DNA of 64,000 nt, taken from the sequence record NC_054903.1; one strand, 5' to 3'. The stretch is from Enterobacteria phage GiZh. Position numbers and translations under genes: made by a program. Shown here in pieces: positions 18,630-19,322 of this stretch (its first letter is position 1; every line of letters begins with the position of its first letter). The notes under the pieces are model-generated. The model made no database searches and had not been told where the DNA came from. It saw only the letters and a list, made by a program, of their open reading frames with translations.

Positions 18630-18680
18630 GTAGTTGATAGGGTAATAGTATCACTACCCTATCTAAAAGTAAACTTATTT
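18630..18680 (-). promoter_or_regulatory. early-promoter/stem-loop cassette (PeSL-like)
   Basis: Core TAATAGTATCACTAC flanked by inverted repeat gataggg/ccctatc; gtaaac 18669-18674. Confidence 0.5.
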
Positions 18681-18908
18681 TTTACGAAAAATTGATTTAT
18701 TTTCTGCTGCCCATTTTTCAATAACTGCAGCAGGACCAGTAACAACAATTTTATCACCGTAATCTTCTGCGGCGAGTTGACCGAAATTATCTAATGCATC
18801 ACGAAGAACTCCATGAGGCATTTCACCCATTTTATCTTTCTTGCCGGTGTAAATAAACTCAACTTTTACATCAGAAGATTCAGCGATAAACTCTTTGAAA
18901 GTTTTCAT
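18675..18908 (-). CDS. internal-protein-like (capsid-targeting leader)
   Basis: Start placed at MKTFKEFIAE then SSDV (track ORF extends to 18974); about 77 aa. Confidence 0.6.
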   Translation of the reverse strand: MKTFKEFIAESSDVKVEFIYTGKKDKMGEMPHGVLRDALDNFGQLAAEDYGDKIVVTGPAAVIEKWAAENKSIFRKK

Positions 18909-18934
18909 TTTGATTTCCATTTGGTTTTGTTTTG

Positions 18935-18990
18935 ATAGAGTAATAGTATCACTACTAAAACCCTGTGTAAACAACTTTGTGAAATTATTT
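18935..18990 (-). promoter_or_regulatory. early-promoter cassette (PeSL-like)
   Basis: Same core; gtaaacaactttgtgaaattattttaaa shared with copy at 19262. Confidence 0.5.
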
Positions 18991-19242
18991 TAAATCTTCT
19001 AATCGTTTCTTCATCTTAGAACCATTTTTAGCAATTTCTCCTGCATCTGAGCATAATGCTAAAAGCGCTTTAACTTTAGTTTGGTCTCCTTTAAAAGATG
19101 AAGGATCGACTGCAGCAGCAAGTTCTTTAATACGAGAGAAAAGACGCTCAGCTTCAGCTAAAGCCATTCCAAGCTTTACTTCCATACCGTGGGAAGATTC
19201 GGTGATAGTAGTTTTTGTAGCAAACTCTTTGAAAGTTTTCAT
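18985..19242 (-). CDS. internal-protein-like (capsid-targeting leader)
   Basis: 85 aa; MKTFKEFATKTTITE then SSHG; AGGA upstream of ATG. Confidence 0.65.
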   Translation of the reverse strand: MKTFKEFATKTTITESSHGMEVKLGMALAEAERLFSRIKELAAAVDPSSFKGDQTKVKALLALCSDAGEIAKNGSKMKKRLEDLK

Positions 19243-19261
19243 TTTATTTTCCTAATTAATT

Positions 19262-19322
19262 TTGATGAGATAATAGTATCACTACCTCATCAACGTGTAA
19301 ACAACTTTGTGAAATTATTTTA
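19262..19322 (-). promoter_or_regulatory. early-promoter/stem-loop cassette (PeSL-like)
   Basis: Same core flanked by inverted repeat ttgatgag/ctcatcaa; gtaaac 19297-19302. Confidence 0.5.

Follow-up and report, generated by a model that had tools for sequence, protein, structure and literature searches.

The DNA analysed here, referred to throughout as the window, is a stretch of 64,000 nt from Enterobacteria phage GiZh (NC_054903.1) and belongs to a T2/T6-like Tequatrovirus, with the locus of interest being the internal-protein (IP) cluster that adjoins genes 57B and 57A on the minus strand. The 2 kb around the finding matches 760 phage records, with Escherichia phage Ge15 as the top match at 99%, and T6 matches it at ~97% identity across 90% of the length. 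The matching genes of T6, all of which lie on the strand that is the minus strand in the window, are annotated as internal virion protein, internal head protein, 'RNA ligase' (at the position of 57B), tail fiber chaperone (57A) and dNMP kinase.

Two small internal-protein genes are found here on the minus strand (18675-19242), one at 18985-19242 and the other at 18675-18908, and both match the internal head or internal virion proteins of PHROGs (E 1e-49 for the ORF at 18988-19242 and E 3e-51 for the ORF at 18678-18908). Both have the capsid-targeting sequence MKTFKEF as their N-terminus, a 31-nt direct repeat spans the start codons of the two, and each is accompanied by one promoter-hairpin cassette. 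Ten tRNA genes are also present in the window, at 16831-17661. The Ip1 and Ip2 proteins of T4 are known to be anti-restriction factors (PMC12373910).

Early promoters enclosed by inverted repeats

The cassettes share a 15-mer, TAATAGTATCACTAC, that has exactly three occurrences, at 18643, 18941 and 19271, and these three copies sit in a family of 71-nt direct repeats with a spacing of 298 and 330 nt. The functional orientation of the promoters is the minus strand, on which the 15-mer becomes GTAGTGATACTATTA and contains TGa followed by a -10 of TACTAT, with GTTTAC (-35) 18 nt upstream. The -10-like element that the initial annotation had seen in this core is TACTAT, and the core is recognisable from its sequence as the extended -10 (TGaTACTAT) of T4-type early promoters (GTTTAC, 18 nt, TAnnnT). 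There are 11 such sites (GTTTAC-N18-TAnnnT) on the gene strand in the window, within 19 kb, each of which is followed by a Shine-Dalgarno sequence and ATG. Inverted repeats enclose all three copies of the core as well as the promoters at 15075 and 15461, with the five being referred to as P1 to P5.

The promoter P1 (18645-18674, minus strand), found by a pattern scan and from its sequence, drives a 61-aa ORF at 18431-18616, and the TAA stop of the IP gene upstream (18677-18675) abuts its -35 GTTTAC (18674-18669). Its -10 is enclosed by an inverted repeat at 18636-18663 with perfect arms GATAGGGTA and TACCCTATC of 9 bp, which as RNA folds into a hairpin of 12 bp at -16.4 kcal/mol (z -5.1; this and the other z-scores are against dinucleotide shuffles, with the hairpins folded as minus-strand RNA). 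The initial annotation had claimed this repeat and it is real, with the correction that the 7-nt 3' arm given there overlaps the core by one base and the perfect arms are 9 bp long. With the usual distance of 7 nt between hexamer and start, transcription from P1 is predicted to begin at the A at 18638, which is within the 3' arm.

P2 (18943-18972, minus strand), with the same core as P1 and P3, drives the internal-protein gene at 18675-18908. Its copy of the core is the middle one (18941), which the initial annotation did not include, and it folds too, with an interrupted stem. The hairpin (18937-18964, minus strand) consists of AGGGU/ACUCU with one G.U pair, a 2x2 internal loop and UAGUA/UACUA, and reaches -9.9 kcal/mol (z -2.5) as RNA; relatives have a perfect ATAGGGT/ACCCTAT stem.

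P3 (19273-19302, minus strand; GTTTAC at 19302-19297, TGa and TACTAT with the latter at 19278-19273), picked up by scans for both the pattern and the TG consensus, drives the internal-protein gene at 18985-19242. The repeat claimed by the initial annotation at 19262-19293 is present there with perfect arms TTGATGAG and CTCATCAA of 8 bp, and as RNA this minus-strand hairpin has 14 bp, including G.U pairs, and an AUAC loop (-15.5 kcal/mol, z -4.7). In relatives TACCTCATCA, a perfect G-C form, takes the place of the G.U form of the window.

The remaining two promoters, also on the minus strand, are P4 (15426-15461; GTTTAC at 15461-15456, -10 TATTAT at 15437-15432) and P5 (15039-15075; GTTTAC at 15075-15070, -10 TATAAT at 15051-15046), and in both of them the upstream stop abuts the -35. 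The hairpin of P4 (15453-15426), AGGCUCAUGAU/AUUAUGAGCCU, has the perfect arms AGGCTCA/TGAGCCT of 7 bp and folds as RNA at -15.7 kcal/mol (z -5.8), and that of P5 (15062-15039), TGGGAGTA/TACTCCCA, has arms of 8 bp and folds at -14.0 kcal/mol (z -3.7). These correspond to the inverted repeats that had been reported around the -10 at 15428-15453 and 15040-15060, now found to extend over 15426-15453 and 15039-15062.

The layout of P1 to P5 is the same throughout, with an upstream stop that abuts the -35 or lies at most 12 nt from it, a leader of ~22 nt and an AT-rich junction to the Shine-Dalgarno sequence and ATG of a small accessory gene. Of the 11 early promoters that the window contains, 4 have a perfect inverted repeat of at least 7 bp, compared with 3.2% of minus-strand positions by chance. 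Folding adds a further early promoter of the same design on the minus strand (3445-3487), with a 15-bp RNA hairpin that includes G.U pairs around a -10 of TATAGT and has an energy of -19.0 kcal/mol on the sense strand and -8.9 kcal/mol on the antisense strand. Other arrangements also occur, in that at 8485-8447 and at the promoter at 11586 it is the Shine-Dalgarno sequence that is paired by an outer stem, and in a separate class of promoters the -10 pairs with the region of the Shine-Dalgarno sequence and AUG.

Position, covariation and junction compactness

Related loci were surveyed in 137 sources (2.6 Mb), covering the regions around 57A, 1, tk, modA and 55, plus T6 and the first 50 kb of T4, and this gave 373 distinct promoters, where a promoter was defined as GTTTAC, 17-19 nt and TAnnnT, then a Shine-Dalgarno sequence and start codon. 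A scan of IMG/VR with the 15-nt core returned mostly chance matches in unrelated contigs and was not used, and the RefSeq record of T4 is without promoter features, so that mapped T4 promoters could not serve as a gold standard.

The repeats are real, far above chance and position-specific. In the set of 112 distinct promoters collected first, a perfect repeat of at least 7 bp surrounds the -10 in 39%, with a background rate of 2.8% of positions, and 59% have a fold of -10 kcal/mol or lower, against 10.6% of background 46-mers. When positions are counted from the first base of the -10 hexamer, stems of at least 7 bp have their 5' arm at -16 to -4 (in the spacer), their loop on the hexamer and their 3' arm at +5 to +15 (in the discriminator and start site), with almost no such stems elsewhere within 70 nt on either side of the 112 promoters. 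The commonest register, shared by 46 stems among those with 6 bp or more, places the dyad between the first T and the A of the hexamer. Within this geometry loop sizes range from 8 to 24 nt and the length of the arms varies also, and the arms themselves are of at least 30 unrelated sequences, the first data set containing 33 distinct 5' arms.

The initial annotation had proposed, from arms that differ in sequence and still pair, that selection is for the pairing and not for the sequence, and the survey bears this out with compensatory changes at a fixed place relative to the -10. In the orthologues of the promoter at 15075 the arms are GGGAGTA/TACTCCC, GAGGACA/TGTCCTC or GGGAACA/TGTTCCC, with four of the seven pairs altered on both sides and 100% of cells paired, compared with at most 57% in slid registers. 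In the dominant register, represented by 45 distinct promoters, 89.8% of cells pair as against 68.8% in shuffles; these 45 were chosen for having at least six pairs in register, which raises the percentage paired, not the diversity of pair types. Cells in which both sides have changed number 141, compared with 46.5 in shuffles, a value that none of 500 shuffles reaches, and 9 of the 12 pairs are altered on both sides. The P4 (15461) family has a single compensatory pair, which is not above shuffles, there being too little variation in that family. As the arms covary both in the 15075 orthologues and in the dominant register, selection acts on pairing rather than on arm sequence. The test that the initial annotation had named as able to overturn its idea, homologous cassettes without paired arms, does not overturn it.

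The strongest regularity found for the presence of a hairpin is the distance between the upstream stop codon and the -35. With promoters clustered at 80% identity, a hairpin is present in 48 of the 94 clusters in which this gap is less than 20 nt and in only 4 of the 84 in which it is larger (Fisher p = 1.3e-12). The hairpin is not obligatory, as about half of the compact junctions are without one. Roomy junctions have instead a separate hairpin upstream of the promoter (44 of 57), typically with a GC-rich stem and a UUCG or GAAA loop, and 23 of these 44 have at least five T in the next 8 nt. No such run (at least five T in the 8-nt tail) follows any of 46 embedded hairpins, whose tails are A-rich and form the leader of the next gene.

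The window itself holds an example of the roomy layout, with a canonical terminator on the minus strand at 15936-15959 (GC stem, GAAA loop, T-run) that is followed, ~140 nt further along the transcribed strand, by an early promoter without a hairpin, at 15797. The terminator scan that found it makes two calls in the window, 16514-16491 and 15959-15936, and calls none of the promoter hairpins. Independently of this work, the annotation of phage Lutter marks promoters at these same compact junctions and terminators at roomy ones. Two compact promoters of Lutter are without a hairpin, and its orthologous junction carries a different cassette that is hairpin-less.

Kinship with promoter-early stem-loops

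The element is of an already published kind, the promoter-early stem-loop (PeSL), and lies at the locus where these were first noticed. PeSLs were described by Arbiol et al. (2010) in RB49 and phi1 as strong early promoters joined to a stem-loop, which is mostly between the -35 and -10 or overlaps the -10 (PMC2839356). They were proposed to be terminators or attenuators, and recombination between PeSLs was shown (PMC2839356). One RB49 stem-loop cut the expression of lacZ in the same way as rrnB T1, and it is for this one G/C-rich stem only that terminator activity was measured (PMC2839356). Earlier work by Repoila et al. (1994), as cited there, found PeSL-like elements flanking both T-even IP loci, built on T4 early promoters and having stem-loops that are weaker, AT-rich and not constant in size (PMC2839356), and the flanks of the IP loci were proposed to confine the shuffling of IP genes to the locus (Repoila et al. 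1994, as cited in PMC2839356 and PMC4122927). Comeau et al. (2014) extended PeSLs to PST/T4, with a consensus of TTTACW-N17-TAYWAT, and also to nt-1/KVP40 (PMC4122927). The main review of T4 transcription does not mention hairpins at early promoters and calls the shut-off of these promoters unexplained (PMC2988021).

The cassettes of the window resemble PeSLs in several ways. A stem-loop that overlaps the -10 is listed among the commonest PeSL layouts, and PeSLs occur as many copies clustered in hyperplastic regions, where they flank genes that differ between close relatives; here three cassettes lie within 700 nt, with the 11 promoters in 19 kb. The promoters of the window (GTTTAC, 18 nt, TAnnnT) match the PST/T4 consensus, with TG before the -10 at P1 to P3. 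They also agree with what is cited from Repoila et al. (1994) for the T-even IP flanks, where the IP genes are next to 57B and every one of them has a T4 early promoter together with a stem-loop that is AT-rich and weaker. There are differences too, as RB49 has near-consensus TTGACA/TATAAT promoters and stems of G-runs and C-runs, whereas here GTTTAC and TGn are found with AT-richer and very varied stems. For PST the figure legend puts the stem-loops just upstream of the promoter, whereas the -10 lies inside the stem-loop both in the present cassettes and in 48 of 94 compact junctions. What is added to the published picture is the rule on junction compactness, the constancy of the geometry and the lack of a U-run, which is a modest and incremental advance.

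Interpretation of the embedded hairpin

The interpretation we favour, with a probability of roughly 60%, is that these are T4-type early promoters in PeSL-like cassettes whose hairpin would form only in read-through RNA, serving there either as an insulator or as a structure of the 3' end. The anatomy, the pairing, the covariation, the compactness and the lack of a U-run are all observed directly, and it is from these that we infer an action in RNA and the role played in it.

The promoters are sigma-70 promoters of the minus strand with a UP-like AT tract, GTTTAC, TGn and the -10, packed into junctions of ~70 nt between small accessory genes, in this case the genes for injected internal proteins. 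The repeat occupies the stretches of the promoter that are free of hexamers, namely the spacer and the discriminator and start-site region, with the -10 as its loop. A polymerase arriving from the upstream gene would produce a stable hairpin of 9-14 bp just past the stop codon, starting ~11 nt after it in the upstream-derived RNA. Transcripts from the cassette's own promoter would begin within the 3' arm, and because the usual start, 7 nt past the hexamer, falls in that arm, they would be unable to form the hairpin and their 5' leader would stay open. The embedded hairpin may thus correspond, at compact junctions, to the separate terminator hairpin found where there is room, marking or insulating the 3' end of the upstream unit through attenuation, pausing or 3'-end protection, and it may be written into the non-hexamer parts of the next promoter because there is no other room for it. 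The near-identical repeated copies could in addition supply homology for swapping the small genes that they flank; the 72-nt cassette of P4 and the cassette of P5 have matches in other phages that do not extend to the adjoining gene.

Intrinsic (Rho-independent) terminators are the obvious comparison, as they too have a stable hairpin directly past the stop codon and take the same slot in the layout of the junction. The two kinds of hairpin fill this one slot in a mutually exclusive manner, which suggests that the embedded hairpin does a job related to that of terminators. It differs from them in having an A-rich tail in the place of a U-run, and with the U-run missing after every embedded hairpin, efficient intrinsic termination of the classical type is unlikely.

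Whether such a structure works as RNA or as DNA was approached by comparing strands and mismatches. The folding of both strands, put forward as a check by the initial annotation, gives stable sense folds (-9.9 to -16.4 kcal/mol for the five hairpins), and in the survey 37 of 47 hairpin clusters fold better on the sense strand than on the antisense strand, with p about 1e-6 when clusters are the unit. This asymmetry was considered as evidence for RNA and discarded, as it is gone once the extended -10 core is forced to be unpaired, and it therefore reflects the G.U pairs of the promoter consensus. Within the variable arms G.T and A.C mismatches stand at 11:6, 22:11 or 21:11 (p = 0.055) according to the definition used, and at 16:2 in one post-hoc alignment-based subset; the counts shift with the definition of the helix ends (p from 0.0007 to 0.88), so that they may be said to lean towards RNA without being decisive. 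As single-stranded DNA the hairpins, whose loops measure 10-16 nt, reach no more than -5 to -7 kcal/mol. The initial annotation had offered a hairpin, a cruciform or a dimeric binding site, and of these it is the hairpin that stands, fitting best as RNA; the weakness of the single-stranded DNA fold and the tolerance of interrupted stems count against a cruciform, and the occurrence of at least 30 unrelated arms against a dimeric site.

An action in DNA, by which a cruciform or a hairpin of one strand would form at the promoter and either tune its opening or serve in the shut-off of early promoters, is unlikely. The arms are mostly perfect Watson-Crick and would work equally well in DNA, in the dominant register the first TA of the -10 is the fixed centre of the dyad, and the shut-off of early promoters is unexplained according to reviews (PMC2988021, PMC3014915). 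Against this are the low energies and large loops of the single-stranded form given above and the tolerance of interrupted stems and of G.T positions, and a role intrinsic to the promoter does not predict either the tie to the end of the upstream gene or the replacement by strand-specific terminators. Moreover shut-off is general, and the repeat is present in only about half of the compact promoters and almost none of the roomy ones.

Just as unlikely is a structure-specific recombination signal, similar to attC, that would be read by a phage or host enzyme for the excision and insertion of cassettes. The cassettes do flank small variable genes and recur beside different genes, and mini-circles between PeSLs have been reported together with the suggestion of a protein that binds the stem-loop (PMC2839356). 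The published crossovers, however, are scattered over the shared sequence, as would be expected of plain homologous exchange (PMC2839356), an integrase-like gene has not been reported, and arms that differ between neighbouring copies give less homology and not more. Neither the compactness rule nor the complementary terminators would be predicted by such a signal. It is also quite improbable that a hairpin without a U-run is a distinct device, either an element for early-promoter shut-off or a site for the excision and insertion of cassettes, that acts at the promoter through DNA or through nascent read-through RNA.

It is very unlikely that the repeat has no function and is a by-product of a self-complementary consensus (TGATA ... 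TATCA) or of templated quasi-palindrome mutation. The conserved TGATA of the extended -10 and the CTATCA of the start region alone do give a repeat of 5 bp, and the promoter core supplies part of the stability of the RNA, but stems of 7-11 bp make use of variable positions, with many unrelated sequences and compensatory changes, and are absent from promoters of the same consensus at roomy junctions.

More improbable again is a translational gate, in which the read-through fold would hide the ribosome binding site downstream so that only transcripts from the cassette's own promoter are translated. Gating hairpins with a promoter inside them are known for the T4 genes e, soc, 49 and I-TevI, where the 3' arm hides the ribosome binding site and the inner promoter is late or middle. 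The cassettes are like these in that long upstream transcripts would fold and the own transcript would lack the 5' arm, and unlike them in having an early promoter and a Shine-Dalgarno sequence that stays outside the fold. A gate does seem to apply at the other sites mentioned above, 8485-8447 and 11586, where the outer stem pairs the Shine-Dalgarno sequence, and in the class in which the -10 pairs with the Shine-Dalgarno and AUG region, but in the read-through fold of P1 to P5 the Shine-Dalgarno sequence is unpaired, and over 135 promoter clusters its pairing with sequence upstream of the start site is 0.497 compared with 0.501 in shuffles. A dimeric DNA-binding protein with its operator centred on the -10 is close to refuted, for although the dyad symmetry has a fixed point within the promoter, no sequence is common to the half-sites (>30 arm types, 9 of 12 pairs altered on both sides) and both the length of the arms and the size of the loop (8-24 nt) vary.

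If the hairpin does belong to the read-through RNA, then T4-type phages would pack two signals into a single stretch of 30 nt, the hairpin of the upstream gene and the promoter of the next. Taken with the fixed geometry and the absence of a U-run, the compactness rule makes the claim of terminator activity for the T-even cassettes worth an experiment. As the cassettes carry the genes of injected internal proteins, the design may bear on both the expression and the exchange of such accessory genes.

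Start-site and Shine-Dalgarno pairing at early promoters

It is apparent that the start-site region is kept in a large share of the early promoters, in many loci, as CTATCAA(A/C) at +6 to +12 past the -10 hexamer. This stretch is complementary to the extended -10 TGATA, and on its own it yields a 5-bp inverted repeat, as at position 15060 of the related phage locus L006.

Two early promoters on the minus strand of the window have an extended hairpin that reaches the downstream Shine-Dalgarno, at 8447-8485 (read-through fold -22.4 kcal/mol) upstream of ORF 7977-8438, and at 11547-11586 (-17.3 kcal/mol) upstream of the denV-like ORF 11115-11531, with the Shine-Dalgarno of the downstream gene paired by a spacer stretch, CCUCUU or CUCC. 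As a general rule, pairing of the Shine-Dalgarno with upstream sequence was no more than chance across 135 promoter clusters compared with a shuffled control.

A second class of early-promoter hairpin

There is a second class of early-promoter hairpin, in which the gene driven by the promoter has its Shine-Dalgarno and start codon paired with the -10 hexamer and discriminator. It is found in the T4 genome (L138 13128-13163, minus strand) and in further related loci (L223:4643-4680, L214:4755-4795, L231:4824-4863, L243:5963-6001 and others), with modB of T4 as an example (AUAUGAUAGCUUCUG...CGGAGGCUAUCAUG, -18 kcal/mol). The bases preceding the AUG covary with the variant of the hexamer, giving TATGAT/ATCATG, TATAGT/ACTATG and TATAAT/ATTATG. 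Such a hairpin would mask the ribosome site in read-through RNA, and would leave it free in the gene's own transcript.

Terminators and sequence quality

Two canonical terminators that are almost identical (AGCCCCGACC-GAAA-GGTTGGGGCT then TTTT) lie on the minus strand at 16491-16514 and 15936-15959, spaced by ~550 nt and flanking on both sides ORF 15967-16440, which is downstream of the tRNA cluster. Elsewhere, the translation of ORF 2595-2966 (minus strand) contains an X, which means that one base of the window at ~2920 is ambiguous.

Exchange of promoter cassettes

Upstream of a conserved 197-aa ORF, the junction at 15020-15090 is orthologous to 2843-2907 of phage Lutter (L244). Both Lutter and T6 carry at this junction an early-promoter cassette without a hairpin (GTTTACAATCTATTAAAACGTGATATTAT), unrelated to that of the window, therefore the promoter cassettes themselves have been exchanged. 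A 31-nt direct repeat, 94% identical, at 18888-18918 and 19222-19252 covers the start codon and first codons of the two internal-protein genes, these codons encoding the capsid-targeting sequence MKTFKEF in both, and this repeat is a second homology block flanking each cassette.
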